Positions 86 through 40,716 of a stretch of 64,000 bases of DNA are shown piece by piece. Source of the DNA: Burkholderiales bacterium (lineage in GTDB: Bacteria > Pseudomonadota > Gammaproteobacteria > Burkholderiales > JAEUOS01); assembly GCA_031362865.1 (NCBI GenBank), contig JANLTH010000003.1, positions 62,848-126,847 of the forward strand. Reading direction: 5' to 3'. The notes below the pieces were generated by a model, which worked only from the letters and a program-made list of their open reading frames with translations, was not told the origin of the DNA and made no database searches. The position numbers and the translations under genes are program-made. How positions within the stretch are numbered: the first letter of the stretch is position 1; each line of letters opens with the position of its first letter.

Positions 86-1126
86 ATGTGTATGAAATCA
101 CAGAAGATCAATCCGCAAACATCGCCACGAATTCGAACTGAGTTTGTCGTCAGCGACGCGTTCGACGCGCACAGCGATGCCGTTTATCATCAAGGGGATT
201 GCCTTGAGTTGATGCGCAACCTACCCGCTCAGAGCATGCAACTGGTGGTTACTTCCCCTCCCTACAATCTTGGGAAAAAGTACGAGAAGCGTAGCGCACT
301 GGACAGCTATCTGTCCTGGCAAGCGGAGGTAATCGCTGAAGCAGTGAGAGTCTTGCGTCCGCAGGGCAGCATCTGCTGGCAAGTGGGGAACTACGTAGAG
401 AACGGCGAAATCGTGCCACTTGACATCGCCTTGTACCCCTTTTTTTCTCAGCACGGTTTGAAGCTGCGCAATCGGATCGTGTGGCATTTTGAGCATGGTC
501 TGCATTGCAGCAATCGCTTGTCTGGTCGTCACGAAACCATTCTTTGGTTCACAAAAACGGATAGCTACACCTTTCACCTGGATCCAATTCGCGTCCCTCA
601 AAAATATCCCGGCAAGAAACACTTCAAAGGCCCCAAGGCTGGGCAGCTTTCGGGAAATCCGCTTGGGAAAAATCCGGGGGATGTCTGGGTGTTTCCGAAC
701 GTGAAAAACAATCATGTTGAAAAGACGGCTCACCCTTGCCAGTTTCCGATTGAATTGGTCGACCGGCTGATTCTTTCTCTCACCGACGAAGGAGATTGGG
801 TGTTGGATCCTTTCGCGGGCGTTGGCACCGCCGTTGCTGCTGCGGTCAGACGGGGACGTCGTGGTGTGGGTGCCGAGAAACTGGCCGAATACGTGGAGAT
901 CGCCCGTCGACGCATCGAGCAAGCAGCGCTAGGAACTCTGCCGGTGCGGCCGATGAATACGCCCGTCTATGACCCCGCCGATGCAGGCAAGAGTCTGACC
1001 ACAAATCCGTGGGCCGCGCTTCAAACTGCACCTCGCCCAAACCACTATGATCACACCACGGTATCCACGCAGTACGCGCTCCTCCAGGATCAAGCGTCAT
1101 ATGACCCCATGCCGGGCCGCGCATAG
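86..1126 (+). CDS. beta-class amino DNA methyltransferase (N4-cytosine or N6-adenine, PF01555-like); modification half of a type II R-M pair
   Basis: 346-aa ORF. Catalytic motif TSPPY (aa 56-60) lies upstream of the SAM-binding motif DPFAGVGT, the permuted order typical of beta-class N4/N6 methyltransferases. SPPY rather than DPPY leans toward N4-cytosine. Confidence 0.9.
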   Translation: MCMKSQKINPQTSPRIRTEFVVSDAFDAHSDAVYHQGDCLELMRNLPAQSMQLVVTSPPYNLGKKYEKRSALDSYLSWQAEVIAEAVRVLRPQGSICWQVGNYVENGEIVPLDIALYPFFSQHGLKLRNRIVWHFEHGLHCSNRLSGRHETILWFTKTDSYTFHLDPIRVPQKYPGKKHFKGPKAGQLSGNPLGKNPGDVWVFPNVKNNHVEKTAHPCQFPIELVDRLILSLTDEGDWVLDPFAGVGTAVAAAVRRGRRGVGAEKLAEYVEIARRRIEQAALGTLPVRPMNTPVYDPADAGKSLTTNPWAALQTAPRPNHYDHTTVSTQYALLQDQASYDPMPGRA

Positions 1127-2476: not shown

Positions 2477-2893
2477 CTATTTTGCCGCTTGCCGTTTCAA
2501 AAACCGCATCAAACTGCCGAGCACCGGCAATTTCTCATACAACTCTTCTGCCACGTCCCAATAGTCGCGGTGCGAGCTGATGCGTCCGTCGGCGGCGAAT
2601 TGCAGGTGCGTGGTGCCGCGCACTACTTGCGACTTGCCGCGCATCTCGAACAGAAAGTCCCACGTCAGCATCACCTCGCCATTGGCAGCGTGAAAGCGTT
2701 GATGCACTTTGAAACGCGGATTGACCACCTGTTTGAACATGTGGGCGTAAACGTGTTCGACTTTGGCCACGCCGCGCACTTCCTGAAACGGGTCTTTGAA
2801 GAACGCTTCCTCGCTGTAAAACAGCGGCACCTGCGCCACCGTTTGTGGCGTGATGCTTTCGAACCATTGCACGATGTCGTCCATGCTTGTCAT
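2477..2893 (-). CDS. NTF2/SnoaL-like small protein
   Basis: 138-aa ORF with a 4-nt overlap with the upstream SDR gene. Size and pattern match the nuclear-transport-factor-2-like proteins that accompany the CFA-synthase-like cluster. Confidence 0.55.
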   Translation of the reverse strand: MTSMDDIVQWFESITPQTVAQVPLFYSEEAFFKDPFQEVRGVAKVEHVYAHMFKQVVNPRFKVHQRFHAANGEVMLTWDFLFEMRGKSQVVRGTTHLQFAADGRISSHRDYWDVAEELYEKLPVLGSLMRFLKRQAAK

Positions 2894-3666
2894 AGTCCGG
2901 TTCCTTTTTTGATCGCCTTGAAATAGGCGGCATCGGGCAGCAACCCTAGAGCTTTGAGGGTGCGCGTAAAGCGCTTGGGGAAGTGCGTTTCAAACTCGCC
3001 GCGCTCCAATCCCTTGACGATTTCGCCTGCAGCTTCTTCCGCTGACATGAGAGCGGGCATGGCGAAAGTATTCTGCGCCGTGAGCGGCGTTTCCACAAAG
3101 CCGGGGTTGATGACGCTCAAGCCCAAGCCCTTCTCGTGTAAGTCGAGGTATAGCGTTTCGGCCAAGTTGATGAGCGCCGCTTTCGAGGGACCATAGGCCA
3201 GCGCATTGGGCAAGCCGCGATAGCCTGCGACTGAAGCAACGATGGCGATGTGGCCGTGGGCGGCTGCCAGCATGCCGGGCAGCACGGCATCAATCCCGTG
3301 CAAGACACCGGTGAAATTGACCGCGAAGTGATGGTTGATGACGGCCAGGTCAAACTGGTCAGCACGCAGGGGCGAATACGTGCCCGCGCACAGAATCGCC
3401 AAATCGAGCCCGCCCCAAGCCTGCGCGATTTGCGCGTGGGCGGCGCGCTGCGCCCCGGGGTCGGTTACATCGAGCGGCAGGGCCAGCGCGTGCGCGTGGC
3501 CAGCAATCAACCCGGTCAACTTGTCGGCACTGCGGGCTGAAACGGCGACGCGCGCACCGCGCGCCAGCAGCAGCTTGGCGGTGGCAGCCCCAATGCCAGT
3601 CGAAGCACCGACCACCCAAACGCGCAAATCGCGCCAATCACTGAACTTGGGATTGAGCGCCATCAA
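2890..3666 (-). CDS. short-chain dehydrogenase/reductase (SDR)
   Basis: 258 aa. N-terminal Rossmann motif VVGASTGIGAATA, and a YGPSKAA segment containing the catalytic YxxxK. Confidence 0.85.
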   Translation of the reverse strand: MMALNPKFSDWRDLRVWVVGASTGIGAATAKLLLARGARVAVSARSADKLTGLIAGHAHALALPLDVTDPGAQRAAHAQIAQAWGGLDLAILCAGTYSPLRADQFDLAVINHHFAVNFTGVLHGIDAVLPGMLAAAHGHIAIVASVAGYRGLPNALAYGPSKAALINLAETLYLDLHEKGLGLSVINPGFVETPLTAQNTFAMPALMSAEEAAGEIVKGLERGEFETHFPKRFTRTLKALGLLPDAAYFKAIKKGTGL

Positions 3667-4217
3667 CTCGCGGAACGCTTTTTAAACGACAGAGTCACAG
3701 CACCCAGATACACACCAAACTTGCGCATTTCAGCGCGGTTGAGCATCACCTGGTCGTCCATGAGAAACATCCAGTCGTTGAACTGTACGTCGTACACTTT
3801 GCCATCCACCGGCAGGCGCAGGGTGTACTCCCATTGCAGCGCATTGCCAGAAATGCGCCCAATCGCTTCACCCACTACGTCGTCGGCACGGCCGATATAG
3901 CTGCCATCGGCGCGGCGTTGCAGGTTCCACACGCGCTTTTGCTTGGTGCCGTCTGAGTACGTGAAGTCTTCGTCGAGCACCCCTAAATCGCCGCGCCACG
4001 AGCAGCGCATCACCACCGTGAAGCGCTTGACCACCTTGCCAGACCGGTCCTGAAACACGCCCCAAGCATCGAGCGTGCCGTTGAAATAGGTACGCAAGTC
4101 GAGCACTGGCTGCTCGGCGGCGTAGTGGGCCAAGTCTGAAGTCGCACCGCAACCTGCGAGCACGAGTGCTCCAAGAGCCGCGCCAGTAAATCGTCTTCGG
4201 CCTATCGAATTTTCCAT
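3663..4217 (-). CDS. DUF3833-type lipocalin-like lipoprotein
   Basis: Only the last 184 codons of track ORF 3663..5036 are plausible. ATG at 4217, lipobox LVLAGC, then the pattern LDLRTYFNG..W.GVFQDRSGKV typical of DUF3833. Confidence 0.75.
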   Translation of the reverse strand: MENSIGRRRFTGAALGALVLAGCGATSDLAHYAAEQPVLDLRTYFNGTLDAWGVFQDRSGKVVKRFTVVMRCSWRGDLGVLDEDFTYSDGTKQKRVWNLQRRADGSYIGRADDVVGEAIGRISGNALQWEYTLRLPVDGKVYDVQFNDWMFLMDDQVMLNRAEMRKFGVYLGAVTLSFKKRSAS

Positions 4218-5494
4218 AACAAACCTCCTGCAATCAGTTTGAGACCACACGGCACCAGACAGTAGAGCACCGCCAATGCCACGCCTCCTGAGACGTTGGC
4301 GGTCGGCGTGAGGTTCCCCGGCACATATCCTGCCAGGCTCAGAATGGGCAAGGTCAAGCCAGCGGCAAAAGCCAGATTGGCCTTCGTCACCAAATTCCAG
4401 ATACCGAAATAAGCGCCCTCCGCACCCTGGTGATTGGCTTTTGCGATGGTATCGGCCAGCATTGAGGGCGCGATTGCCAAATCTGCCGCCACCGCCACGC
4501 CGGACAAAGCGCAGATCAGCATAAAGGCGGCCACCACTTGCGGTGTTTCGCTGGTGAGAAAAAACGCCCACACAAAAACCGCAATCGCCAAACCCATTGA
4601 AAGCAACCAGGCCACACGCTTGGACCAGCGCGCCGCCACCCGCAGCCATAGCGGCAAGGCAAGCGCGCCGCACAAAAAATAGACTGCCAGGAATGCGCCC
4701 TGCCACTGTGGTAGCCGCAACCGGTCGCTTACAAAAAAGAGCAGCAAGGTCGCTGGAATGGCGGCTGCGATGCCATTGATCGCAAACACGGCAACTAAAC
4801 GTCGGAAGGCGGGGTTTTGCAGTGGTCGCACGTCGCTGACTTTGGCCACGCAGGCTTTGGAGGTAATGGCTCCACCGCCACTGGCTATGCCGGAACCCAG
4901 GAACACCGCGCCCAGCGCCAGTGCGGCGGCCGCACCCACCCACGCGGTCAGCGCCATGCCTTGGGCCAAGTCGGTGTGCAGCTGCGGCAGCAGCGCAGCC
5001 ACGATCACGCCGACGAATACGAAGCCTTCGCGCCACGCCGTGTAGCGGGTGCGCTCGTGATGCGGGTCCGGATCAGGGGCCAGCACTGCACCCAGCGCCT
5101 GATGCGGAATCGTCACGCACGAGAGGCCCAGGGTCGCCACCACCACCGTCAGCGCCAGCCAGGCGGCCGATGAAATGCCCAACACTTGGCTCCAGGCTGG
5201 ATGCAGCAGCGCCAAGAGGCCGAGCGCGAGCGTCAGCAGCCCGGTTGCCATGAGCGGTACACGTCGCGCACCGTCCGCCCGATCAGCAATGCGGCCAATC
5301 CACGGGTCGAGCATCGCATCCAACGCGCGCGAGGCTAAGAGGATGCCGCCGGTCAGCCCCAATGCCACGCCAACGCTTTCGGCATACAGTTTTGGCACAT
5401 AGACGTAAACCGGCAGTGCCGCAAAAGCGAGCGGAAAGCCCAGCGAGCCATACAGGATGAGACGACCAGTGTTGGCGCGCGCAGCAGCGGTCAT
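4202..5494 (-). CDS. MFS transporter (GPH-like)
   Basis: 430-aa highly hydrophobic ORF with about 12 predicted TM segments. It sits in the position of the MFS gene in the conserved CFA-like cluster. Confidence 0.8.
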   Translation of the reverse strand: MTAAARANTGRLILYGSLGFPLAFAALPVYVYVPKLYAESVGVALGLTGGILLASRALDAMLDPWIGRIADRADGARRVPLMATGLLTLALGLLALLHPAWSQVLGISSAAWLALTVVVATLGLSCVTIPHQALGAVLAPDPDPHHERTRYTAWREGFVFVGVIVAALLPQLHTDLAQGMALTAWVGAAAALALGAVFLGSGIASGGGAITSKACVAKVSDVRPLQNPAFRRLVAVFAINGIAAAIPATLLLFFVSDRLRLPQWQGAFLAVYFLCGALALPLWLRVAARWSKRVAWLLSMGLAIAVFVWAFFLTSETPQVVAAFMLICALSGVAVAADLAIAPSMLADTIAKANHQGAEGAYFGIWNLVTKANLAFAAGLTLPILSLAGYVPGNLTPTANVSGGVALAVLYCLVPCGLKLIAGGLLWKIR

Positions 5495-5506
5495 TCCGGC
5501 CCTAAA

Positions 5507-6841
5507 TCAGGCGTGGGCCAGCGTGAATTGGACTACGTCGGTTGACCTTGCGCGAAACGCGCCTTCGCAGTAGGCCAGATAGAACTCCCAGGTGCGCATG
5601 AAGCGCTGGTCGAACGCCGCCATTTGGTTGGCCGGTTGCAAAGCGCCCACCGCGTCGCGCTGCTCCAGAAAAGCCTTGCGCCAGCGCCGCAGGGTTTCGG
5701 CGTAGTCCAGCCCAAACGCGTGCTCGCTAGCGACCCGCAAACCGGCACGGGCTGCATAGGCACGGAACACTTCGGGTGAAGGCAGCATGCCACCGGGGAA
5801 GATGAATTGCTGAATGAAATCAGTGCCGGTGCGGTACTGCGCAAACAACTCGTCGGCAATCGTAATAGTTTGCACTACGGCCCGCCCGCCGGGTTTCAGG
5901 CAGCGCTTCAGGCACTGAAAATAGTCAGGCCAGTAGGCTTCGCCCACCGCTTCAAACATTTCAATCGAGGCGATGCCATCAAATTGGGTGTTGAGGTCGC
6001 GATAGTCGGTGAGCGTCAGGTGCGCGCGTTCAGCAAAGGCATCAAGCCGTTGATTCGCGTAGGCCAATTGCTCGCAAGCGAGCGTGACACCAGTCACCCG
6101 GGCTTGCGGTTGTTCCAGCGCAACTTGCGCAAAGCCGCCCCAGCCGCAGCCGATTTCGAGAATGTCCGCGCCGTTTTGCAGTTGCAATTCGTGCAGCACG
6201 CGCTGGTACTTGGCACGCTGCGCCGCTTCGAGCGAGAGCGCGAAATCGCCGTCAAACAGCGCGCTGGAATAGGTCATCGATGGGTCGAGCATGAGCGCAT
6301 AGAAATCATTGCCCAAGTCGTAATGGGCGTGGATGTTTTTCTGCGCCTGCGGCTTTGAATTGCGCTTGAGCCAATGCTTGATCCGGTAGACCAATTGCCC
6401 CAGCCACGAGCCATACACCGCGCGCTCAAGCAGGTGGCGGTTTTGTGCCAATAGAGCAATCAGAGCCGGCAGATCGTCCGCCGTCTCATCGGCCGACCAA
6501 AAGCCCTCGATAAAGCACTCGGCAAAGCCGATGTCGCCGCCACGCAGCGCGCGCGCGAACACCTGCCAGTCGTTGATCGTCAGGGTTGCATGCAGCGCAT
6601 CGGGTGCTACCGCGCCTACAAAAGTGCGGGTGCTGCCGCCCGGCAGATGCACGGTCAACGTGCCGACTTCGAGGCGAGTGAGCAAGCGCAATACCACCTT
6701 CGCAGCCCAAGGCGCTGGCGCATAGCCCGCGCCCTGGGGAGCCGCTGGGCTGGGGGTAACAAACGGCTGCGCAAGCAGAGGGGACAACTGCGAGTGGATC
6801 AATTGGGGAATAAGCGAGCAGCGCATGAAATGGGAACTCAA
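5507..6841 (-). CDS. cyclopropane-fatty-acyl-phospholipid synthase-like SAM-dependent methyltransferase
   Basis: SAM motif ILEIGCGWGGFA plus the CFA-synthase family pattern (HYDLGNDFY, MTYSSALF). The track start at 6841 is TTG; an ATG at 6826 is an alternative start. Confidence 0.85.
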   Translation of the reverse strand: MSSHFMRCSLIPQLIHSQLSPLLAQPFVTPSPAAPQGAGYAPAPWAAKVVLRLLTRLEVGTLTVHLPGGSTRTFVGAVAPDALHATLTINDWQVFARALRGGDIGFAECFIEGFWSADETADDLPALIALLAQNRHLLERAVYGSWLGQLVYRIKHWLKRNSKPQAQKNIHAHYDLGNDFYALMLDPSMTYSSALFDGDFALSLEAAQRAKYQRVLHELQLQNGADILEIGCGWGGFAQVALEQPQARVTGVTLACEQLAYANQRLDAFAERAHLTLTDYRDLNTQFDGIASIEMFEAVGEAYWPDYFQCLKRCLKPGGRAVVQTITIADELFAQYRTGTDFIQQFIFPGGMLPSPEVFRAYAARAGLRVASEHAFGLDYAETLRRWRKAFLEQRDAVGALQPANQMAAFDQRFMRTWEFYLAYCEGAFRARSTDVVQFTLAHA

Positions 6842-7659
6842 AGCGAACGGGTGACGAAGTCGGCGGGTGGGGCAGGTTTACGAAAGAAGGGCACGCGCTT
6901 TAACCATAGTCGCAGCGCCTGCCAGTGGATTCGCGCCATCACGCCTACAGTGAAAAACGGAAAGCGCAGCAGGGTGCGCGCCAAGTTTGTCGCCGTGACG
7001 CCAACCGAACGCCCCGAGACGCAAGTGTCGATCAAGCGCCCTGCTGCGTCGGCAAAGTTGATGCGCGCCACGACCTGCTGCGCGCCTTCGCGCCGGGCGG
7101 CCAGAAAGCGGAATTGGTATTCGCCTTCCACACGCGCAAACGGCGACACGTGAAACACTTTGCGCGCAATCATTGGCGCACCCGGCAGCAAAGCGCCGCC
7201 ATCCGGCTGGGCGATCAGGTAGCAGTGCCGCTCACCGAAGGTATTGTTCACCTCGACCACGATGGCGCGAGTCGTACCGTCAGCTCGCTCACAAAACCAG
7301 AAACTGACCGGGTTGAACACGTAGCCTAAGACCCGTGGAAATGTCTGCAGCCACACTTCTCCTTCGGCATCGGCAATGCCGTGCTCGCGCAACAGCCGGG
7401 CGATCCAATCGGTAGGCGAGCCTCCGTCACCATGGTCGGCAAAATGAAAGCTGAGCGGCGCGGCGCGGTTCACGCCCAGCCAGCGCGGCGCAGCACGATC
7501 CAGGGCTTTCAAGCCTGAAAGCGGAAAGCGCAGAAAGAATACCGAGTAGACAAATTTGTGTGCCGTCGGGCGCACCCGCGCATGCATTACTTGGCCTAAG
7601 AACAGCCATGGCGGCGGTTCTTCACGGCATATTGGCGCAACAAGCGCATCAGGCGGCAT
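6838..7659 (-). CDS. DUF1365 family protein
   Basis: 273 aa. The pattern G.V.H.R..P..H.F.Y.VF and its position between the FAD oxidoreductase and the CFA-like methyltransferase match the conserved DUF1365 arrangement. Confidence 0.8.
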   Translation of the reverse strand: MPPDALVAPICREEPPPWLFLGQVMHARVRPTAHKFVYSVFFLRFPLSGLKALDRAAPRWLGVNRAAPLSFHFADHGDGGSPTDWIARLLREHGIADAEGEVWLQTFPRVLGYVFNPVSFWFCERADGTTRAIVVEVNNTFGERHCYLIAQPDGGALLPGAPMIARKVFHVSPFARVEGEYQFRFLAARREGAQQVVARINFADAAGRLIDTCVSGRSVGVTATNLARTLLRFPFFTVGVMARIHWQALRLWLKRVPFFRKPAPPADFVTRSL

Positions 7660-8989
7660 TCTTCAGCCTTGGTTCTGAGAGAGAGTTTGCCAATGCCGCA
7701 ATCGCGTGGGCGACGTGCAAGCCCGATTTGAGGCCATCTTCATGAAAGCCATAGCCAGTCCACGCGCCAGCGAACCAGAGCCGATCTGTGCCTTGAATCT
7801 GCGGTACGCGTGCCTGTGCGGCAATCGCAGCTGCATTGAACACCGGGTGCGCGTACTCGATGGATTGCAAAATTGTCTCGGTCCGCGGCGACGTAAGTGG
7901 ATTGAGCGTCACCATCAGCGGCGTACTAAATGGAAGCGGCTGTAGCTTATTGAGCAAATAGCTCACGGCCACCGGGCGCTTGCTGCTGCCAATCGCACCG
8001 GGCTTGCCAGAGTTACCCAAAAAATTCCACGCCGCCCAGGCACGGCGACGCGCGGGCAGTTGGGCGATGTCGGTATGCAATACGGCGTGATTAGTTTGGT
8101 AGGGGACGGCCGCGAGCACGCTGCGCTCGGCCGAGGTCGGCGCCTCCAGCAAGGCGAGCGCCTGGTCGCTATGGCAGGCAAACACGACTTGATCAAAATG
8201 CTCGATGCCGCGTGCGGTGACCAGATTGACCCCGGCTGCGGCGCGGCTGACCCGCGTGACCCCGGCGCTGGTCCGCACCGCGCACCCGGGCTGAGTGCGG
8301 ATCGCGTCGGCGAGCTTTTCCACATACTGCCGCGCGCCACCCGCAACGGTCATCCACTGCGGGCGGTCGGCTACTTGCAACAGGCCGTGATTCAAACAAA
8401 AGCGCGTAAACGTGGCCACTGGAAAGTCCAGCATTTCGGCCGTGGGGCAGGACCAAATCGCGGCCCCCATCGGCAGCAAATACCAGTCGCGAAAAGTTTG
8501 GCTATAACGGTTTGCGTCGAGATAATCGCCCAGGCTTTGAGAAGCCGAGGCAGCCTCGCCGTGCTGCCCCGCCAAGGCACTGGCCTCACGATTAAAGCGC
8601 ACAATCTCTTGCACCATACGCCAAAACGCCGGGCGCGCCAGGTTGCGACTTTGCGCAAACAGAGTGGCCAAGTTCGAGCCGGCCCATTCGAGGGTCGGCA
8701 CGCCGCCCGTGTCACGCAGGCTCACTGAAAAAGTCATTTCTGACTTGGCAGTCGGCACGCCCAGCTCGTCAAACAGGCGTACCAAATTCGGGTAGGTACG
8801 ATGATTGAACACCAGAAAGCCGGTATCCACCGGGTGGGTGATGCCATCCACCATGGCCTCGACCGTGTGGGTATGCCCACCCAGGCGCGTGTCGGCTTCG
8901 AGCAGGCTCACGCGCAACCCCGGCGCACGCGCCAGCTGCCACGCGCACGCAAGGCCAGAAATTCCAGCACCGATGACAGCAATGTTCAT
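7649..8989 (-). CDS. NAD(P)/FAD-dependent oxidoreductase (amine-oxidase-like)
   Basis: Dinucleotide-binding N-terminus MNIAVIGAGISGLACAW. ATG at 8989 is preferred over the upstream track start at 9046. Confidence 0.85.
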   Translation of the reverse strand: MNIAVIGAGISGLACAWQLARAPGLRVSLLEADTRLGGHTHTVEAMVDGITHPVDTGFLVFNHRTYPNLVRLFDELGVPTAKSEMTFSVSLRDTGGVPTLEWAGSNLATLFAQSRNLARPAFWRMVQEIVRFNREASALAGQHGEAASASQSLGDYLDANRYSQTFRDWYLLPMGAAIWSCPTAEMLDFPVATFTRFCLNHGLLQVADRPQWMTVAGGARQYVEKLADAIRTQPGCAVRTSAGVTRVSRAAAGVNLVTARGIEHFDQVVFACHSDQALALLEAPTSAERSVLAAVPYQTNHAVLHTDIAQLPARRRAWAAWNFLGNSGKPGAIGSSKRPVAVSYLLNKLQPLPFSTPLMVTLNPLTSPRTETILQSIEYAHPVFNAAAIAAQARVPQIQGTDRLWFAGAWTGYGFHEDGLKSGLHVAHAIAALANSLSEPRLKNAA

Positions 8990-9029
8990 GGAAGTTTTAC
9001 GAAAATGGAACTGGCTCGGATGCATGAAC

Positions 9030-9195
9030 CTGGTGTGGTGTTGCACGCTGTTTGCGGCTTATAAAAATGATGGATTTTTCGTCGAATCGAGGTGCAAAGC
9101 ACAGTCATAGTTCCACTATGACGAGCATTTGCAACGACGAGTCGGCGTAAAAGACGCATTTTTAAGTCGCATTAAGTGAGCAACGCTAAACTAGG
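9030..9195. repeat. 166-bp imperfect palindromic intergenic element, copy A
   Basis: Reverse-complement match, roughly 9 of 10 positions by eye, to 54226..54391. It is internally self-complementary with a central hairpin GTCATAGT-TCC-ACTATGAC. Confidence 0.85.
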
Positions 9196-9257
9196 GCAAG
9201 CAACGGCAGGATTTACACATTCCTTAGAGCAAGGGGGGAGGATCCGCCCAAAGGAAA

Positions 9258-10082
9258 CTACCTGCCGCTACTTGCCTGGGCCAGCGCGCTCGCGCGGTCA
9301 CGCTTGTCATGTTCAATCACCGCATAGGCGGAATGGTTGTGGATCGATTCAAAATTTTCCGACGAGACGGTGTAAGCGGCTATGCGCTCTTCAGCATTGA
9401 GCGCCACTGCGATGTCGCGCACCAAATCCTCGACAAATTTGGGGTTGTCGTAAGCACGTTCAGTCACCCATTTTTCGTCGGGGCGCTTGAGAATGCCGAA
9501 CAGTTCACACGAGGCGGCGCGCTCGGCGATTTGAATCAATTCGAGCACCGGCAAGGGCGCTGCCACCAGCACGCGAATCACGACCCTCGAGCGCTGGTTG
9601 TGCGCGCCGTAGTCAGAAATTTCTTTCGAGCACGGGCACAAGCTGGTGACCGGCACCGCAACTTCAATCGTGTATTCCACCGCGCTGTCAGCTTGTTTTT
9701 TCTCGCGCGTCAGCACCACATCCACATCCATCAAGCTTGCCACACCCGACACGGGCGCGTGCTTGGTGTAGAAGTAAGGGAATTTGAGCGAAAGCAGGCC
9801 GGTTGAAGCCTCCAGCTTGCTCAGCATGCGCTCAAACAGGTCGGCGAACGACTGCGTGTCGATCTCGTTGCCATGGCTATGCATCAGCTCCACGAACCGC
9901 GACATGTGCGTGCCTTTTTGGATGGCAGCCAATCCGACTGCCATATCAACCAGCGCCACCGTGGCGACACCGGAGCCGTCCATCGAGCGCATTTTGATCG
10001 GGTGGCGCATGGCCCTGATGCCAACGCGGTTGATCGCGATTTGGCGGGTATCCAACGCGGATTGCATATCGGGTAGAGTCAA
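9258..10082 (-). CDS. folE2: GTP cyclohydrolase I type 2 (FolE2)
   Basis: 274 aa. DVQ/D.R...I..VGI N-terminal pattern, KGTHMSRF motif and CPCSKEIS cysteine pair are typical of FolE2/MptA. Confidence 0.85.
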   Translation of the reverse strand: MTLPDMQSALDTRQIAINRVGIRAMRHPIKMRSMDGSGVATVALVDMAVGLAAIQKGTHMSRFVELMHSHGNEIDTQSFADLFERMLSKLEASTGLLSLKFPYFYTKHAPVSGVASLMDVDVVLTREKKQADSAVEYTIEVAVPVTSLCPCSKEISDYGAHNQRSRVVIRVLVAAPLPVLELIQIAERAASCELFGILKRPDEKWVTERAYDNPKFVEDLVRDIAVALNAEERIAAYTVSSENFESIHNHSAYAVIEHDKRDRASALAQASSGR

Positions 10083-10156
10083 GCGGAACCTGTTGGCGAA
10101 AAGGAGTACGGTTTACGGACGGTCAGACTGAGATGTTGGCTGAGGAAAATCATATT

Positions 10157-10169
10157 TTGTCCTAGACAA
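10157..10169. promoter_or_regulatory. candidate operator, inverted repeat TTGTC-CTA-GACAA (site 1)
   Basis: Exact 13-mer TTGTCCTAGACAA in the AT-rich divergent region between folE2 and the MerR/B12 regulator. An identical copy lies 96 bp away. Confidence 0.5.
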
Positions 10170-10252
10170 TTAAGCCACGTCTCAAAGATATAGTCTATTC
10201 TGTAGAAAATCAACCCCTATAACGCATTTTTTTGATACATTCATTCTTAATA

Positions 10253-10265
10253 TTGTCCTAGACAA
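10253..10265. promoter_or_regulatory. candidate operator, inverted repeat TTGTC-CTA-GACAA (site 2)
   Basis: Second exact copy of TTGTCCTAGACAA. It overlaps a possible -35 (TAGACA) that has a TTCAAT -10-like hexamer 17 nt downstream. Confidence 0.5.
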
Positions 10266-10316
10266 AATACTTGGTTTAAGGTTCAATAGCATTTTTGCCG
10301 TGGAATTGAAGTCCCC

Positions 10317-11315
10317 GTGACTCTCCAACCCGTTTCCGCTTCCGTGGGCACTGCAAGGTCGGCTGACGCTGGCACTTTTGTCGGCATCAGCGCGGTTGAG
10401 CGCGACACCGGGCTTTCCAAAGACACGCTGCGGGTCTGGGAGCGCCGCTACGGCTTTCCGCAGCCGCATCGCGACGCTGCAGGCGAGCGCCTCTACCCAC
10501 CAGTGCAGATTGATACGCTGCGGCTGATCAAGCGCCTGATGGATCGCGGCATGCGCCCCGGCAAAGTGATCGGGCGACCGCTGGAAGAGTTGCTCGCGCT
10601 CGGGCAAACCGACCCAAAGCCCGCTCTCGCCTCCGCCGCTCTGTTCTCGGCGAGAAGTGCCGGAGCGGCAAGCCTGACGAGCTATCTTGACTTGTTGCGG
10701 GCCCACGCGGTGGAAGATTTGCGCCGCTCCCTGTCGCAAGCACTGCTGCGCCACGGTGTCGCCGATTTTGTGATTGGCACGGTGGCTCCGCTCACACAAA
10801 TGATTGGCGACGCCTGGATGAGCGGGCGGCTGGCGATTTATGAAGAGCACCTCTTTACCGAAACTGTGCAATCCGTGTTGCGCCATGCGATTGCCGCGCT
10901 GCCAAGCGCGATTCACACCGCGCCTGCATCACGCCCGCATGTGTTGCTGACCACGTTTCCGGACGAACAGCACGGCTTGGGCTTGCTGATGGTGGAAGCT
11001 TTGCTCACACTCGAAGGCGCGCGCTGTGTCTCGCTGGGTACTGCGACACCATTGGACGAGATTGCGCGCGCCGCGCAGTCACATGGTTGCGATATTGTCG
11101 CGCTGTCGTTTTCGCAAGCCTACCCCGCCACTCAATTGGCCGACGGCCTGCGCGAGTTGCGCGCCAACCTGCCTGCTGGCACTGAAATTTGGGCGGGCGG
11201 CGCGGGTTCGGCCCTGCAGAAAAAGCCGCCGGAGCAAGTCCGCATCATCGGTGCGCTCAGTGCGGTGCACGCGGCCGTTGCCGAGTGGCGCACGCTACGT
11301 TTGCCGGCGGCGTGA
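10317..11315 (+). CDS. MerR-family regulator with C-terminal B12-binding domain (LitR/CarH type photoregulator candidate)
   Basis: N-terminal MerR HTH (ISAVERDTGLSKDTLRVWERRYGFP). The C-terminal Rossmann-like domain carries the cobalamin signature ExHxxG (EQHGLG), followed by ALSFS and WAGGAG. GTG start. Confidence 0.8.
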   Translation: MTLQPVSASVGTARSADAGTFVGISAVERDTGLSKDTLRVWERRYGFPQPHRDAAGERLYPPVQIDTLRLIKRLMDRGMRPGKVIGRPLEELLALGQTDPKPALASAALFSARSAGAASLTSYLDLLRAHAVEDLRRSLSQALLRHGVADFVIGTVAPLTQMIGDAWMSGRLAIYEEHLFTETVQSVLRHAIAALPSAIHTAPASRPHVLLTTFPDEQHGLGLLMVEALLTLEGARCVSLGTATPLDEIARAAQSHGCDIVALSFSQAYPATQLADGLRELRANLPAGTEIWAGGAGSALQKKPPEQVRIIGALSAVHAAVAEWRTLRLPAA

Positions 11316-11515
11316 GTAATCTGCCGGTCCGGCCTACGCAGTCTGCGAGCACCGGGTTTCGTGGCATCAAAGCCAATTTGCCCTCCAAACCCTGCCTGGT
11401 CTGCGGCCGCGCGATGACTTGGCGGCGCGCCTGGGCAAAAAATTGGGAGGCCGTCAAATATTGTTCAGAGCGCTGTCGTGCCGCCAAGCCTGCGGCAGGC
11501 AGAACCTCGCCATGA
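11312..11515 (+). CDS. DUF2256 zinc-ribbon protein
   Basis: CLVCGRAMTWRRAWAKNWEAVKYCSERC matches the DUF2256 CxxC...CxxxC pattern. The proposed GTG start overlaps the regulator stop (GTGA), and the stop overlaps the photolyase ATG (ATGA). The start is uncertain. Confidence 0.6.
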   Translation: MSNLPVRPTQSASTGFRGIKANLPSKPCLVCGRAMTWRRAWAKNWEAVKYCSERCRAAKPAAGRTSP

Positions 11516-13047
11516 CTCGGAACCTGATACTTGTATTAGGCGATCAACTCAATCGCGACAGCAGGGCCTTCCAGCAGCTCGATGCCACCCAGGATTGCGT
11601 GCTGATGATCGAGCGGCGCTCTGAGAGCCAACAAGTGTGGTGCCACAAGGCGCGCAGCACGCTGTTTCTGGCGGCGATGCGCCACTTTGCCGCCGAGTTG
11701 CGCCAACACCGCCTGCCGCTTGACTATGTGATGCTCGAAGAGGCAATCACAGAGCCATTCTTCACGATGCTTGCCCGAAAAATCAAGCACCACGCGCCGG
11801 ACCGGGTGGTGGTGTGCGAGCCCGGCGAATATCGGATGCTGGCCGGCACTCAAGACACCTGCGCCGCCGCTGGGGTGCCGCTCACGGTGTTGCCCGATAC
11901 CCATTTCTTGTGCTCCCGCGAGGAATTCGCGGCGTGGGCGGGCGACAAAAAACGATTGCTGATGGAAGCTTTCTACCGCCAGATGCGCCGCAAAACCGGC
12001 GTGTTAATGATCGATGGCGAGCCTGTGGGTGGCAGCTGGAATTACGACAAGGAAAACCGCAAAGCCTACCCGCGCACTGGCCCCGGTGAAATCGCGCCTG
12101 CCGCCCGCTTCACGCCCGATGCCACCACTCGCGAGGTGATGGCGCTGGTGGAAACCCACTTGCCCGATCACCCTGGGTCGCTGGCCGACTTCGCCTGGCC
12201 CGTGACCCGCGCCCAAGCGCTGCACGCACTCGACCAATTTGTCAGCACGCGCTTAGGCCACTTTGGCGACTATCAGGACGCGATGTGGGCTGGCGAGCCG
12301 TTTGGCTGGCATGCGCTGCTCTCGCCTGCGATGAATTTGAAGCTCATCAGCCCGCGCGAGGTGATTGATGCGGCGTTGGCCGCTTACCACCGGGATCGGC
12401 TGCCATTGGCGAGTGTCGAAGGCTTTGTGCGGCAGGTGCTGGGCTGGCGCGAATTCATTCGCGGGGTGTATTGGCTCGACGCTCCGCTGATGCGTGAAGC
12501 CAATCACTTCGGCCATCAACGCGCCCTGCCCGCCTGGTATTGGAACGGCAAAACCCAGATGAATTGCATGAAAGAGAGCATTGGGCAAACCTTGCAATAC
12601 GGTTTCGCGCATCACATTCAGCGCTTGATGGTGACTGGCAACTTCGCCCTGCTCGCACAGCTGAATCCGCAGCAAGTGGAAGACTGGTATTTGGCGGTGT
12701 ATGTCGATGCGGTTGAGTGGGTTGAATTGCCCAATACCGCCGGCATGGCGCTCTATGCGACTGGCCCGCGCTTTACCTCCAAGCCCTACATCGCCTCGGG
12801 CGCTTACATCAAACGCATGAGCAACTATTGCAGCGGCTGCCGCTATCAGCCACAGGTGCGCACTGGCCCAAAAGCCTGCCCGATGACCACGCTGTACTGG
12901 AATTTTCTCGACACCCACGAAGCGGCGCTGTTCAAAAATATGCGCACCGTGCTGATGGCAAAAAGCGTGCAGCGCTTGAGCGGTGACGAGCGCGCGGCAA
13001 TCCGCTTGCATGCCGCGCACGTACTTAATAATCTTGACTCTCTATAA
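11512..13047 (+). CDS. cryptochrome/photolyase-family protein of the FeS-BCP (PhrB/CryB-like, (6-4) photolyase) group
   Basis: Starts MTRNLILVLGDQLN. Four Cys spaced C-x87-C-x2-C-x12-C (NCMKES ... YCSGCRYQPQVRTGPKACP), the same spacing as the recalled 4Fe-4S ligands C350/C438/C441/C454 of A. tumefaciens PhrB. Confidence 0.85.
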   Translation: MTRNLILVLGDQLNRDSRAFQQLDATQDCVLMIERRSESQQVWCHKARSTLFLAAMRHFAAELRQHRLPLDYVMLEEAITEPFFTMLARKIKHHAPDRVVVCEPGEYRMLAGTQDTCAAAGVPLTVLPDTHFLCSREEFAAWAGDKKRLLMEAFYRQMRRKTGVLMIDGEPVGGSWNYDKENRKAYPRTGPGEIAPAARFTPDATTREVMALVETHLPDHPGSLADFAWPVTRAQALHALDQFVSTRLGHFGDYQDAMWAGEPFGWHALLSPAMNLKLISPREVIDAALAAYHRDRLPLASVEGFVRQVLGWREFIRGVYWLDAPLMREANHFGHQRALPAWYWNGKTQMNCMKESIGQTLQYGFAHHIQRLMVTGNFALLAQLNPQQVEDWYLAVYVDAVEWVELPNTAGMALYATGPRFTSKPYIASGAYIKRMSNYCSGCRYQPQVRTGPKACPMTTLYWNFLDTHEAALFKNMRTVLMAKSVQRLSGDERAAIRLHAAHVLNNLDSL

Positions 13048-13075
13048 TCGCCAGCTTAGCCGTGAAGGAAATGTG

Positions 13076-13942
13076 ATGCTCTACCCTGAACTGTTCAAAT
13101 CGCTTGAAGCGGTGCGCTGGAACATGGCCACCGACGTGCCGTGGGACTCGTTTGATGCGTCCCAATTGACTGACGAGCAGGCGCAAACGATCAAGATGAA
13201 CGCGATCACCGAGTGGTCGGCCTTGCCCGCCACCGAAATGTTCTTGCGTGACAACCTGGACGACAGTGACTTTTCGGCCTTCATGTCGATCTGGTTTTTT
13301 GAAGAACAGAAGCACTCTCTAGTGCTGCTCGAATATCTGCGCCGCTTCAAACCGGCAATGCTGCCCACCGAGGCCGAGTTGCACAATGTGCGTTTCACCT
13401 TCGACCCGGCCCCCGCGATGGAAACGCTGATGCTGCATTTTTGTGGCGAGATTCGCTTGAACCACTGGTATCGCCGTGCCTCTGAATGGCATACCGAGCC
13501 GGTGATCAAAAAAATCTACGACCTGATTTCGCGCGATGAAGCGCGCCATGGCGGGGCTTACCTGCAATACATGAAGCGCGCGATCGGCAATTTTGGCGAC
13601 TCAGCCCGCGCCGCCTTTGCCAAGGTAGGCGTGTTGATGGCCTCCGCCAACCGCACCGCTCAGGCGCTGCACCCGACCAATTTGCACGTGAACGAGTCGA
13701 TGTTTCCGCATGACACGGTGCAGTCAAAACTGCCCGACCCTTCGTGGCTTGAACGCTGGCTCGACACGCAAATCAAGTTTGACCGCGAATGGGAAACCAA
13801 GGTAGTCAAACGTATCTTGCACAACATGGAAATTTTGTTTGAGTGCAGCTTTGACTCGGTGCAAGACTTGAACCGTTACCGCAAAGAAGTCATTAAGCAA
13901 TTGAATGCCTCACTTGCGGCGAGTGCGCCGGTGGCGGGTTAG
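13076..13942 (+). CDS. ferritin-like diiron-carboxylate protein (acyl-ACP-desaturase-like)
   Basis: Two ExxH motifs (FEEQKHS and RDEARHG), each preceded by a distal Glu (PATEMF, FCGEIR), give the E...ExxH x2 diiron signature. ATG at 13076 follows GAAGGA. Confidence 0.7.
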   Translation: MLYPELFKSLEAVRWNMATDVPWDSFDASQLTDEQAQTIKMNAITEWSALPATEMFLRDNLDDSDFSAFMSIWFFEEQKHSLVLLEYLRRFKPAMLPTEAELHNVRFTFDPAPAMETLMLHFCGEIRLNHWYRRASEWHTEPVIKKIYDLISRDEARHGGAYLQYMKRAIGNFGDSARAAFAKVGVLMASANRTAQALHPTNLHVNESMFPHDTVQSKLPDPSWLERWLDTQIKFDREWETKVVKRILHNMEILFECSFDSVQDLNRYRKEVIKQLNASLAASAPVAG

Positions 13943-15647: not shown

Positions 15648-16106
15648 TCATCTGGAAACGCACGCTAGTAGACCCTCTTCATACCCCTGCGCCGTAGAAC
15701 AAATCGTCAGCAATTGACGGCGTGGCAGCGTGAAGCGATCCGCGAATGCCAGATGCACCCAGTGCCCGTACTCGTGAATGATTTGGTCGAACTGCAGATC
15801 AGTAGCTGCTAGGGCTCGCGCGACTTCTAGCGGCGTGCCAAATGCTGGGCAGACAAAATCGGCCGCCAAGCCGCGCGCGTGGGCCGAGTGCGTAACACCG
15901 CCGACTGCCACATTGAGCGCAGGCGACCGATACGCGCTGCTGATGCTCAGCTCGTTCCTCAAGAGCGACCGGCTACGCTCCAGGCCCAGCGCCAAACGAC
16001 GCAGATTGGGCAGGTGTTCTTTTGGCGGTTGATTGTCCAGGCCAAGCTCCTGCGCTTTTTGCGACGCAGTGAGTGCTTGCAACGTAAAATTTTCTGAGAG
16101 CTTCAT
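15648..16106 (-). CDS. peptidase M15A-family (D-Ala-D-Ala carboxypeptidase-like) metallohydrolase
   Basis: Only the last 152 codons of track ORF 15648..16523 are used (ATG at 16106). Motifs SAYRSPALN, HSAHARGLAADF and HEYGHWVHL fit the Zn-binding H..D..H of the M15 family. Confidence 0.75.
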   Translation of the reverse strand: MKLSENFTLQALTASQKAQELGLDNQPPKEHLPNLRRLALGLERSRSLLRNELSISSAYRSPALNVAVGGVTHSAHARGLAADFVCPAFGTPLEVARALAATDLQFDQIIHEYGHWVHLAFADRFTLPRRQLLTICSTAQGYEEGLLACVSR

Positions 16107-19560: not shown

Positions 19561-20646
19561 ATGAAAAAAGAACCGGCGCGAATTGTCTTTGAGAGCGTGC
19601 GCAAGGCCTATGGGCCGGTGGTCGCGGTGCGCGATGTGTCGTTTGAAATTCCGGCGGGCACGCTGGTGACTTTGCTCGGGCCATCGGGTTGTGGCAAGAC
19701 CACCACCCTGCGCATGATCGCCGGGCTGGAGCTGCCCACCAGCGGGCGCATGCTGATCGGTGAGCGCGATGTGTCGGGCCTGCCTGCTTCTGAGCGCGAT
19801 GTGTCGATGGTGTTTCAAAGCTACGCGCTCTTTCCGCACATGAACGTGATCGAGAACGTGGCTTACGGTTTGGTGGTGAGCGGTACGGCCAAACCTGCTG
19901 CGCATGCGGGGGCGCGTGAAGCGTTGAAGTCAGTCGGGCTGGAAGGCAAGGAAGCGCGCCTGCCTTCCGAACTTTCTGGTGGGCAGCAACAGCGGGTTGC
20001 GGTGGCGCGCGCTCTGGTGTTGGAGCCTTCGGTGCTGTTGTTTGACGAACCGCTCTCCAATCTCGATGCCAAGCTGCGCCGCTCGATGCGCGAGGAAATC
20101 CGCGACTTGCAGCAGCGCTTGGGCGTAACCGTGGTCTACGTGACACACGATCAAGAAGAAGCGCTCGCCGTCTCAGACCACATCGTGGTGATGAACCATG
20201 CCGAGATTGCGCAGATTGGCAGCCCGCGCGATTTGTACGAACGCCCCGAGACCGTGTTCGTCGCCACCTTCATGGGCGACGCGAATCTGGTGGCCGCCCT
20301 GCTCCAGCACACCAGTGCCACGCACGGCGACGTACGCTTGGGCGGTATGACTCTGCCGGTGGCGCATCGTGGCATCGCCGCAGGCCAGGTGCAGGTGAGC
20401 CTGCGCCCGGAAAGCCTTGCGGTACAAGCTTCTTCAGCCATGCATGCCGGAGAAACGCACCCAGCAGGCATCTTGCAAGGGGTCATCAAGAAGGCCGCCT
20501 ATTTGGGCACGCACATCGAGTATCACGTCACCACCGCTATCGGCGAACTCTTTCTCAAGTGCGACGAAGTGTTGCAGCCGATTGCACCGGGGGCCGATGT
20601 CAGCCTCACGCCCACCGGCCATGGCGTGACAGTGCTTAAGCCGTGA
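19561..20646 (+). CDS. ABC transporter ATP-binding protein (FbpC/PotA-like)
   Basis: Walker A GPSGCGKTT, signature LSGGQQQRV, Walker B LLLFDEP, plus a C-terminal TOBE-like extension. Confidence 0.9.
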   Translation: MKKEPARIVFESVRKAYGPVVAVRDVSFEIPAGTLVTLLGPSGCGKTTTLRMIAGLELPTSGRMLIGERDVSGLPASERDVSMVFQSYALFPHMNVIENVAYGLVVSGTAKPAAHAGAREALKSVGLEGKEARLPSELSGGQQQRVAVARALVLEPSVLLFDEPLSNLDAKLRRSMREEIRDLQQRLGVTVVYVTHDQEEALAVSDHIVVMNHAEIAQIGSPRDLYERPETVFVATFMGDANLVAALLQHTSATHGDVRLGGMTLPVAHRGIAAGQVQVSLRPESLAVQASSAMHAGETHPAGILQGVIKKAAYLGTHIEYHVTTAIGELFLKCDEVLQPIAPGADVSLTPTGHGVTVLKP

Positions 20647-40162: not shown

Positions 40163-40301
40163 CCGTCAAGGCGGGGCCATAAACAAAAAACCCCGTCGAG
40201 GCGGGGCTATAAACAAAACCCCCGACCGAAGCGGGGCTATAAACAAAAAACCCCACCGAGGCGGGGCTATAAACAAAAAACCCCACCGAGGCGGGGTTTT
40301 T
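40163..40301 (-). repeat. array of four-plus tandem 30-bp units, each a GC-stem hairpin with a U-tract on the minus strand (stacked intrinsic terminators)
   Basis: Units GCGGGGCYATAAACAAAA(A/C)(A/C)CCCCRNCGAR at 40171, 40201, 40231 and 40261, plus a terminal GCGGGGTTTTT. Read on the minus strand, each gives CCCCGCCTCGGTGGGG followed by TTTTTT. Confidence 0.8.
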
Positions 40302-40332: not shown

Positions 40333-40716
40333 TTACTTCTTTGGTGCGTCTTTGCCGGCAGCAGCTTTTGGTGCTTCTTTAGCGGCTTTTTTCGCGGCTT
40401 TGGCTTCTTTCTTTGCCTTCATGTCGGCGTCGCGCTTGGCTTTTTTCTCAGCCTTGGCTTTGGCAACAGCTTCTTTCTTGGCTTTGGCTTCTTCAGCTTT
40501 TTTGGCCTTCATTTCAGCTTTTGCGTCTTTTTTGGCTTCAGGCTTGGCGGCGGCGGCAGCAGGAGCGGCGGCAGGCGCAGCAGCTGGGGCAGCGGCGGGA
40601 GCAGCAGGAGCGGCAGCAGGAGCAGCAGCCTTTGCAGGAGCTGCGGCAGGTGCGGTTTGAGCTTGTGCGGCAACTGCGAACAGGCCAGCAACGAGAGCGG
40701 ATAACAGTTTGTTCAT
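40333..40716 (-). CDS. secreted low-complexity Ala/Pro/Lys-rich protein
   Basis: Signal peptide MNKLLSALVAGLFAVAAQA, then an (A/P)-rich tract, then a K/A/E-rich tract. The only frame of this repetitive DNA with a start and a signal peptide. Confidence 0.6.
   Translation of the reverse strand: MNKLLSALVAGLFAVAAQAQTAPAAAPAKAAAPAAAPAAPAAAPAAAPAAAPAAAAAKPEAKKDAKAEMKAKKAEEAKAKKEAVAKAKAEKKAKRDADMKAKKEAKAAKKAAKEAPKAAAGKDAPKK

Follow-up and report, generated by a model that had tools for sequence, protein, structure and literature searches.

Two identical 13-bp palindromes, one near folE2 and one near a divergently transcribed litR gene, are very probably the operators of the regulator that litR encodes, a predicted AdoCbl-dependent repressor of the CarH/LitR type, which would silence both divergent operons in the dark and release them in the light. 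The palindromes lie in a 64,000-nucleotide stretch of Burkholderiales DNA (the window). Judged from sequence, the candidate operator is palindromic and split rather than composed of tandem direct repeats, and it therefore represents a different design read by the same type of sensor. The sites, their conservation, their close link with the regulator gene, the domains and motifs of the regulator and the conserved promoter hexamers are direct results of the analysis; the binding of the regulator, its stoichiometry, its dependence on B12 and light, and the transcription starts are inferred.

The palindromes and their genes

The sites and the genes that surround them are as follows.

2477-2893, minus strand: SnoaL-like protein (Pfam)
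2890-3666, minus strand: SDR (Pfam)
~3663-4170, minus strand: DUF3833 (Pfam)
4202-5494, minus strand: MFS_2 transporter (Pfam)
5507-6841, minus strand: cyclopropane-fatty-acid synthase-family methyltransferase, cfa (Pfam)
6838-7659, minus strand: DUF1365 (Pfam)
7649-9046, minus strand: amine oxidase-type flavoprotein (Pfam)
9258-10082, minus strand: folE2, GTP cyclohydrolase IB (Pfam GCHY-1, E = 5e-87), at the head of the leftward operon
10157-10169, no strand: O_L, candidate left operator, TTGTC-CTA-GACAA, at about +10 to +22 of the putative folE2 promoter
10253-10265, no strand: O_R, candidate right operator, the same 13-mer as O_L, at about -41 to -29 and over the -35 element of the putative regulator promoter
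10317-11315, plus strand: litR, regulator of 332 aa with a MerR winged helix, a four-helix bundle and a Rossmann B12-binding domain
11509-13047, plus strand: DPRP photolyase-related protein (Pfam DPRP, E = 1.5e-75), 3' of the regulator
13073-13942, plus strand: ferritin-like di-iron protein (weak FA_desaturase_2/AurF matches in Pfam)

The sequence TTGTCCTAGACAA, with 5-bp arms TTGTC and GACAA around a central CTA, matches exactly at O_L and O_R, and the two copies are 96 bp apart from start to start. Their flanks continue as mirror images (TATTTTGTCCTAGACAAT and ATTGTCCTAGACAAAATA), so that GACAAAATA faces the nearer gene at each site. The sequence-only reading had described two identical inverted repeats, one next to each divergent gene, within the most AT-rich part of the locus and with no other copy in the window, and all of this holds: O_L is on the folE2 side and O_R on the regulator side, and the GC content is 0.31 at 10150-10299 compared to ~0.6 around it. 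No further copy of TTGTCCTAGACAA with 0 or 1 mismatch was found in the 64 kb; the single match with two mismatches, at 16033, is inside an ORF, and even the looser TGTC-N3-GACA is confined to the same two places. With a 15-position weight matrix derived from orthologous loci, O_L and O_R scored 24.2 and 23.2 bits, respectively. The next matches in the window (14.7 and 14.3 bits) are both ORF-internal, and the scan thus yielded no additional regulon members there. When the window was simulated 200 times with a first-order Markov model, identical 13-mer pairs 13-150 bp apart arose 0.43 times per sequence, and none of these pairs was palindromic.

Most genes of the leftward string (2477-9046) overlap or abut one another, and they are probably co-transcribed. 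The order of the amine oxidase, DUF1365 and cfa genes recurs in nearly all of 80 orthologous loci, and folE2 takes the same divergent position in 42 of them. On the other side, the succession of regulator, DPRP and di-iron genes is repeated in many of the loci. The predicted local light regulon would thus combine folate synthesis and a conserved cluster for lipid modification with a photolyase-related protein and a di-iron protein. Between folE2 and the amine oxidase gene there is a 211-bp AT-rich gap (9047-9257, GC ~0.45); it holds no strong operator-like site, the nearest best matrix match being one of 10.5 bits at 9303, and it may contain an internal, unregulated promoter.

Several other features were observed elsewhere in the window. 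At 40169-40296, 4.3 copies of a 30-bp unit follow one another head to tail (TRF score 198); in each of them a G+C-rich hairpin, CCCCGnCGAGGCGGGG, stands beside an A/T run, and the whole resembles an array of terminator-like hairpins, with TTTTT on the plus strand after the last. Direct repeats of 13-16 nt, GAGCGCGATGTGTCG, are found at 19629-19794 with 30-bp and 135-bp spacing. An imperfect GCA / 12-bp repeat tract at 40556-40629 (GCAGCAGGAGCA, 6.4 copies) probably encodes an Ala/Gln/Ser-rich repeat. The left edge of the window (86-1126) carries an N6/N4 DNA methylase ORF (Pfam N6_N4_Mtase, E = 2e-53), which is unrelated to the palindromes.

The regulator and the conservation of its sites

By sequence and model, the regulator is a class I protein of the CarH/LitR type, and every class feature that could be tested was found. 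A MerR-type DNA-binding domain is given by Pfam MerR_1 at residues 24-82 (E = 1.3e-13), and a B12 module by B12-binding_2 (residues 123-190) and B12-binding (residues 208-298), both above the cut-offs. The Wx9EH motif (W167-x9-E177 H178) and the ExHxxG motif (E217-x-H219-x-x-G222) are invariant in an alignment of 26 homologues, and their residues align with their counterparts in Thermus thermophilus CarH (TtCarH). In CarH proteins, Wx9EH lies over the upper axial adenosyl group, and the histidine of E/DxHxxG is the lower axial ligand. TtCarH is also the best sequence match in the PDB (5c8d, E = 2.7e-25, residues 19-298). The DNA-binding domain aligns to that of TtCarH and matches the CarA DNA-binding domain (2jml, E = 1.5e-8). 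The AlphaFold (AF2) model has a mean pLDDT of 85; its top Foldseek matches against the PDB are all TtCarH (best E = 4.7e-16), and its target-normalised TM-scores against the cobalamin-binding domain are 0.75-0.83. These Pfam domains, invariant B12 motifs and best matches in sequence and fold confirm the MerR/CarH-like identity that had been proposed from the letters alone. The family is large, with ~8000 proteins at E < 1e-20, and its DNA-binding domain is almost invariant among homologues with only ~55% overall identity.

The comparison set consisted of 80 Burkholderiales loci, whose regulators are 47-57% identical to that of the window. Phylogenetic footprinting in related genomes had been proposed earlier as a check, and it turned out in favour of the sites: in 79 of the 80 loci, the 450 bp upstream of the regulator contain TTGTC-N3-GACAA, with two mismatches allowed. 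Over the total of 622 kb, 162 of the 368 two-mismatch matches fall in the 400 bp before the regulator. Because circularity was to be avoided, we also counted every palindrome of the form 5-N(0-12)-5 upstream of the regulator in the 80 genomes, without bias towards any type. TTGTC-N3-GACAA ranked first, with exact copies in the upstream 350 bp of 48/80 loci versus one copy in the remaining 568 kb; the runner-up palindromes are shifted forms of it. At a matrix score of at least 17 bits, the upstream 450 bp contain 125 matches, compared to 3 elsewhere. The resulting logo, tTTGTC-Y-W-R-GACAAa, has a symmetric preference at the centre (Y-W-R), and T/A flanks extend the site to 15 bp.

The palindromes might be bound by a factor that is not encoded alongside them, for example Zur, a CRP/FNR-type light-cluster activator like Thermus LdrP, or LexA, with the CarH-like protein acting elsewhere or via other sequences. 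We infer the binding of that protein to the palindromes, which leaves room for such a factor; folE2 is a classic Zur target, zinc-regulated in many bacteria, and the half-site centres within each palindrome are 8 bp apart, which is atypical of MerR-type domains, as the half-sites of canonical MerR-family operators are farther apart. However, the sites follow the regulator and not folE2, since 30 of the 31 loci without folE2 keep them, and a Zur box or a folE2-specific site was rejected for this reason. In the remaining 568-586 kb of these loci they are nearly missing, and the regulator is the sole DNA-binding protein consistently adjacent to them. Nor does TTGTC-N3-GACAA resemble the spacing of CRP/FNR sites (5-N6-5 or 5-N4-5) or the LexA form CTGT-N8-ACAG. 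Given a motif that goes with the regulator gene and departs from the consensus forms of Zur, CRP/FNR or LexA, we consider another factor unlikely, and the adjacent CarH/LitR-type protein is the preferred candidate.

A reverse search of metagenomes for a double site at 93-99 bp returned 73 stretches, mostly coding tandem repeats and with no litR homologue; these were unrelated coding repeats, and the double-site pattern alone is therefore not diagnostic outside this genomic context. Two metagenome contigs (L154, 50-158; L162, 611-719) carry the double 13-mer at 96-bp spacing by coincidence, in a coding tandem repeat of LVQDKRDEIQR units, so in very large databases the pattern alone is unspecific.

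Promoters, spacing and a model of repression

The intergenic region of the window can be aligned with those of two other loci, L092, a close relative whose regulator belongs to the same 90%-identity cluster, and L081, whose regulator is 69% identical; in the whole two-sequence alignment with L081 the mean column identity is 72%, flanking coding sequence included. In L092, both 13-mers are fully identical, with substitutions and a 1-bp insertion directly adjoining and none within. In L081, all 20 arm positions are kept, differences are limited to the central bases and the spacing is 95 bp; the rest of the intergenic region is far more diverged than the arms. Conservation in these sequences points to the following putative promoter elements.

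10185-10190, minus strand: P_folE2 -10, TATCTT; AAGATA is invariant in the window, L092 and L081; transcription start at ~10178
10208-10213, minus strand: P_folE2 -35, TTGATT; AATCAA is kept in L092, and the aligned L081 sequence has TTGAAT
10259-10264, plus strand: P_litR -35, TAGACA; within O_R and 17 bp before TTCAAT; L081 has TGGACA-17-TTCAAT
10282-10287, plus strand: P_litR -10, TTCAAT; in the conserved block TAAGGTTCAAT; transcription start at ~10294

The two promoters would thus be TAGACA-17-TTCAAT for litR and TTGATT-17-TATCTT for folE2. TAAGGTTCAAT (10277-10287) is invariant across the window, L092 and L081, with varying bases on either side. The P_folE2 spacer is 17 bp long in both the window and L081 (TTGAAT-17-TATCTT), with diverged sequence, and the AATCAA block reads AATTCAA in L081. 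A generic sigma-70 scan of the intergenic region called no promoter, and the hexamers of both promoters are weak matches to consensus; TTCAAT was missed by the simple scan because of the T at position 2.

Given these starts, O_R would span -41 to -29 of P_litR and be centred at -81 of P_folE2, and O_L lies 15 nt past the conserved leftward -10. The sequence-only reading had placed TAGACA in the right copy as a -35 with TTCAAT 17 nt on; the spacing is exact, and it is the same in L081. The -35 takes site positions 7-12 of O_R, a register that it shares with 44 orthologous site pairs. The divergent geometry of a repressor acting in both directions, also suggested earlier, is supported by the conserved hexamers with one refinement, namely that O_L would sit at about +10 to +22 and not on the folE2 -35. 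By conservation, O_R covers a -35 and O_L falls beyond the leftward -10; the conserved hexamers thus put the sites on a -35 and past a transcription start, which are repressor positions.

It is quite improbable that the regulator is instead a MerR-style activator or a dual regulator, for example one that activates one promoter after illumination. Its DNA-binding domain is MerR-type and many MerR proteins activate; moreover, TA-rich hexamers directly follow the sites (TATGAT after O_L on the minus strand, AATACT after O_R), so that promoters with a site in the spacer could be drawn. However, AATACT becomes ACTACT in L092, and a -10 directly after each site was rejected for this reason. Neither site has a conserved -35 at 17-20 bp upstream in the sequences of the window and its relatives. 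No dyad within a 19-20-bp spacer, as in canonical MerR activator promoters, was found, the conserved spacers being of 17 bp, and the hexamers that are conserved give the repressor positions described above. The characterised CarH/LitR proteins in PMC8156234 and PMC9758184 are all repressors.

That the repeat has no regulatory role at all is scarcely credible: the copies with their flanks do form an 18-nt inverted repeat (83% complementary, separated by 81 nt) and each copy could fold into a 5-bp stem, but the position kept in 79 of 80 distant genomes, the lack of further copies in the window and the absence of palindromic 13-mer pairs from the simulations rule out a chance duplicate or a small mobile element with the copies as its terminal inverted repeats, and the weak hairpins (-2.5 kcal/mol; z-scores -0.8 and -1.7) together with an Rfam search that matched nothing anywhere in the window rule out an RNA element.

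The 96-bp spacing of the window is a minority layout, shared at 95-96 bp by two relatives. The commonest one, with 44 site pairs, has the sites 61-64 bp apart; spacings of 53-54, 95-98, 122, 132-134, 157, 183 and 199-203 bp also occur, and not all of these are whole helical turns. In the 61-64-bp layout, positions 7-12 of the distal site read TAGTCA, TAGGCA or TGGTCA, and 17 bp after them a -10-like hexamer is found in 37/44 pairs. This rightward hexamer is TATACT in 22 pairs, and it agrees with consensus at four or more of the six positions in 43 of the 44. On the opposite strand, 4 bp separate TTGACN from the proximal site in 35/44 pairs, and TAGTAT or a similar hexamer follows 17-18 bp on; the distance from this leftward -10 to the distal site is 17 nt in 36/44. 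As predicted from these regularities, the layout is a compact bidirectional promoter with overlapping -10 regions, in which each putative promoter carries an operator at or beside the -35 and has the second one past the point where transcription starts.

Five loci (L017, L019, L020, L027 and L032) have a third good site, TTGTCCAGGTCAA, at about -279 from the regulator anchor and 96 bp past the distal operator. A small divergent ORF begins with its start codon directly against the distal operator, and the third site lies within the 5' portion of this ORF. Because these loci are close relatives from one lineage and the site is ORF-internal, they are not independent support for the 96-bp spacing.

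In the repressor model that we favour, a B12-bound oligomer would occupy both palindromes in the dark. With two symmetric and strongly conserved half-sites in each palindrome, one would expect every site to take up two DNA-binding domains. By analogy with Thermus and Bacillus CarH, the oligomer is probably a tetramer (dimer of dimers), and the four half-sites of the two palindromes would match the four DNA-binding domains of one such tetramer. Occupancy of O_R would mask the regulator's own -35, and the string of litR, photolyase-related and di-iron genes would therefore be autoregulated. Occupancy of O_L, just past the start, would block the divergent operon of folE2, amine oxidase, DUF1365 and CFA synthase. 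Light would photolyse the cofactor, the oligomer would fall apart and vacate the sites, and both operons would be transcribed.

Whether one tetramer bridges O_L and O_R and loops out the 96 bp that contain P_folE2 is a question on which we lean slightly towards no. The distances of 96 and 63 bp correspond to ~9 and ~6 helical turns; the spacing argues for looping weakly, because the promoters embedded between the sites also dictate the 63 bp, and among the other spacings some are out of phase. More tentative still is the general form of this idea, that the four CarH domains pair two by two on palindromes 6 or 9 turns apart, with the dark tetramer looping the bidirectional promoter and light opening it. 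The linker that joins the DNA-binding domain to the helical bundle, which is predicted to be disordered at residues 101-115 in the AF2 model, may enable this two-by-two recognition through its greater length. If the proposal is true, such pairing would be a second, previously uncharacterised mode of DNA recognition for the CarH family.

Comparison with known light-responsive regulators

In characterised CarH operators, an 11-bp direct repeat, nAnnTnnACAn, occurs three or four times in tandem and makes up a single block of ~33-55 bp (PMC8156234). These operators overlap the -35 of a sigma-A/sigma-70 promoter and mediate repression in the dark and relief in the light; for both CarH and LitR, light-inducible genes are repressed from promoter-overlapping operators (PMC8156234). 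AnnTnnACA has no match on either strand of 10083-10316, and the best three-unit nAnnTnnACAn array in this region reaches 9/15, compared to a mean of 9.5 for shuffled sequence. The misfit to the 11-bp direct-repeat operator that had been noted from the sequence is thus genuine, and a tandem direct-repeat operator is ruled out. What is conserved here is a 13- to 15-mer with two-fold symmetry, and as there is no tandem 11-bp array, the candidate operator differs from the published type of Thermus, Bacillus and Myxococcus (PMC8156234).

The protein has the same three domains and both B12-binding motifs as the CarH proteins of Thermus thermophilus, Bacillus megaterium and Myxococcus xanthus (5C8D, 5C8E). 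However, it is ~30 residues longer than TtCarH over the aligned span, and the linker between the DNA-binding domain and the bundle is ~20-30 residues longer. Overlap with a -35 is common to both systems, the promoter here being deduced from conservation. Different from the single tandem block, the sites are two separate 13-bp inverted repeats, 96 bp apart in the window and 62-64 bp apart in most relatives, and in place of carotenoid genes the predicted targets comprise folate, lipid-modification and photolyase-related genes.

CarH serves as a model for B12 photoreceptors and as an optogenetic tool, and all that is known of how it recognises DNA comes from operators with tandem direct repeats. 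A large freshwater and soil clade of Burkholderiales appears, from the sequences compared, to pair the same sensor with a compact palindromic site in two phased copies. The 13-mer is a concrete candidate operator for this clade and possibly a short new operator for light-controlled expression systems, and it raises the structural question of how a head-to-tail tetramer would read inverted repeats.

The class II LitR proteins of Pseudomonas (PplR1 of P. putida, PmlR2 of P. mendocina) control a very similar set of genes for photolyase, folate and fatty-acid modification; the light-inducible clusters under them match the locus described here (PMC9758184, PMC11417400), and folate and photolyase genes are among the PmlR2 targets (PMC9758184). 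Of the two sites used by PmlR2, one is at the -35 and the other lies in the stretch from the transcription start to the start codon (PMC9758184). The present regulator is like PmlR2 in being MerR-type and in having two candidate sites per promoter, one at the putative -35 and one past the predicted transcription start. In class II proteins the B12 module is reduced to the helical bundle, PmlR2 senses light via a partner LOV protein, and the site is TGTACA-N12-TGTACA (PMC9758184), or T(G/A)TACA-N12-TGTA(C/T)A in fuller form. In contrast, the B12 module here is complete and the site is TTGTC-N3-GACAA. With the Rossmann domain and the histidine motif present and no TGTACA hexamer in the intergenic sequence, the regulator falls outside class II.

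The full-text literature that was covered, with the primary class II/III LitR and PhrR reports lying outside its scope, contains no description of the motif or of a class I CarH operator from Burkholderiales. In Halomonas sp. HL-48, Romine et al. 2017 are said to have described PhrR, a B12-binding, light-sensitive MerR-type regulator of folate, photolyase and related genes, and its regulons were reportedly reconstructed by comparative genomics. PhrR would thus be a proteobacterial B12/light regulator of the MerR type with folate and photolyase genes as its targets, as the regulator here is predicted to be, and the operator sequence would not be new if Romine et al. 2017 or RegPrecise already lists TTGTC-N3-GACAA for Burkholderiales.

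The lac operators O1 and O3 are ~92 bp apart, bracket their promoter at about +11 and -82 and are looped by a tetramer with two DNA-binding dimers. The candidate operators described here, 96 bp apart and at about +15 and -81, would be arranged in much the same way, and a tetramer of this kind could bridge them; the protein families are unrelated, and the likeness is a mechanistic analogy only.
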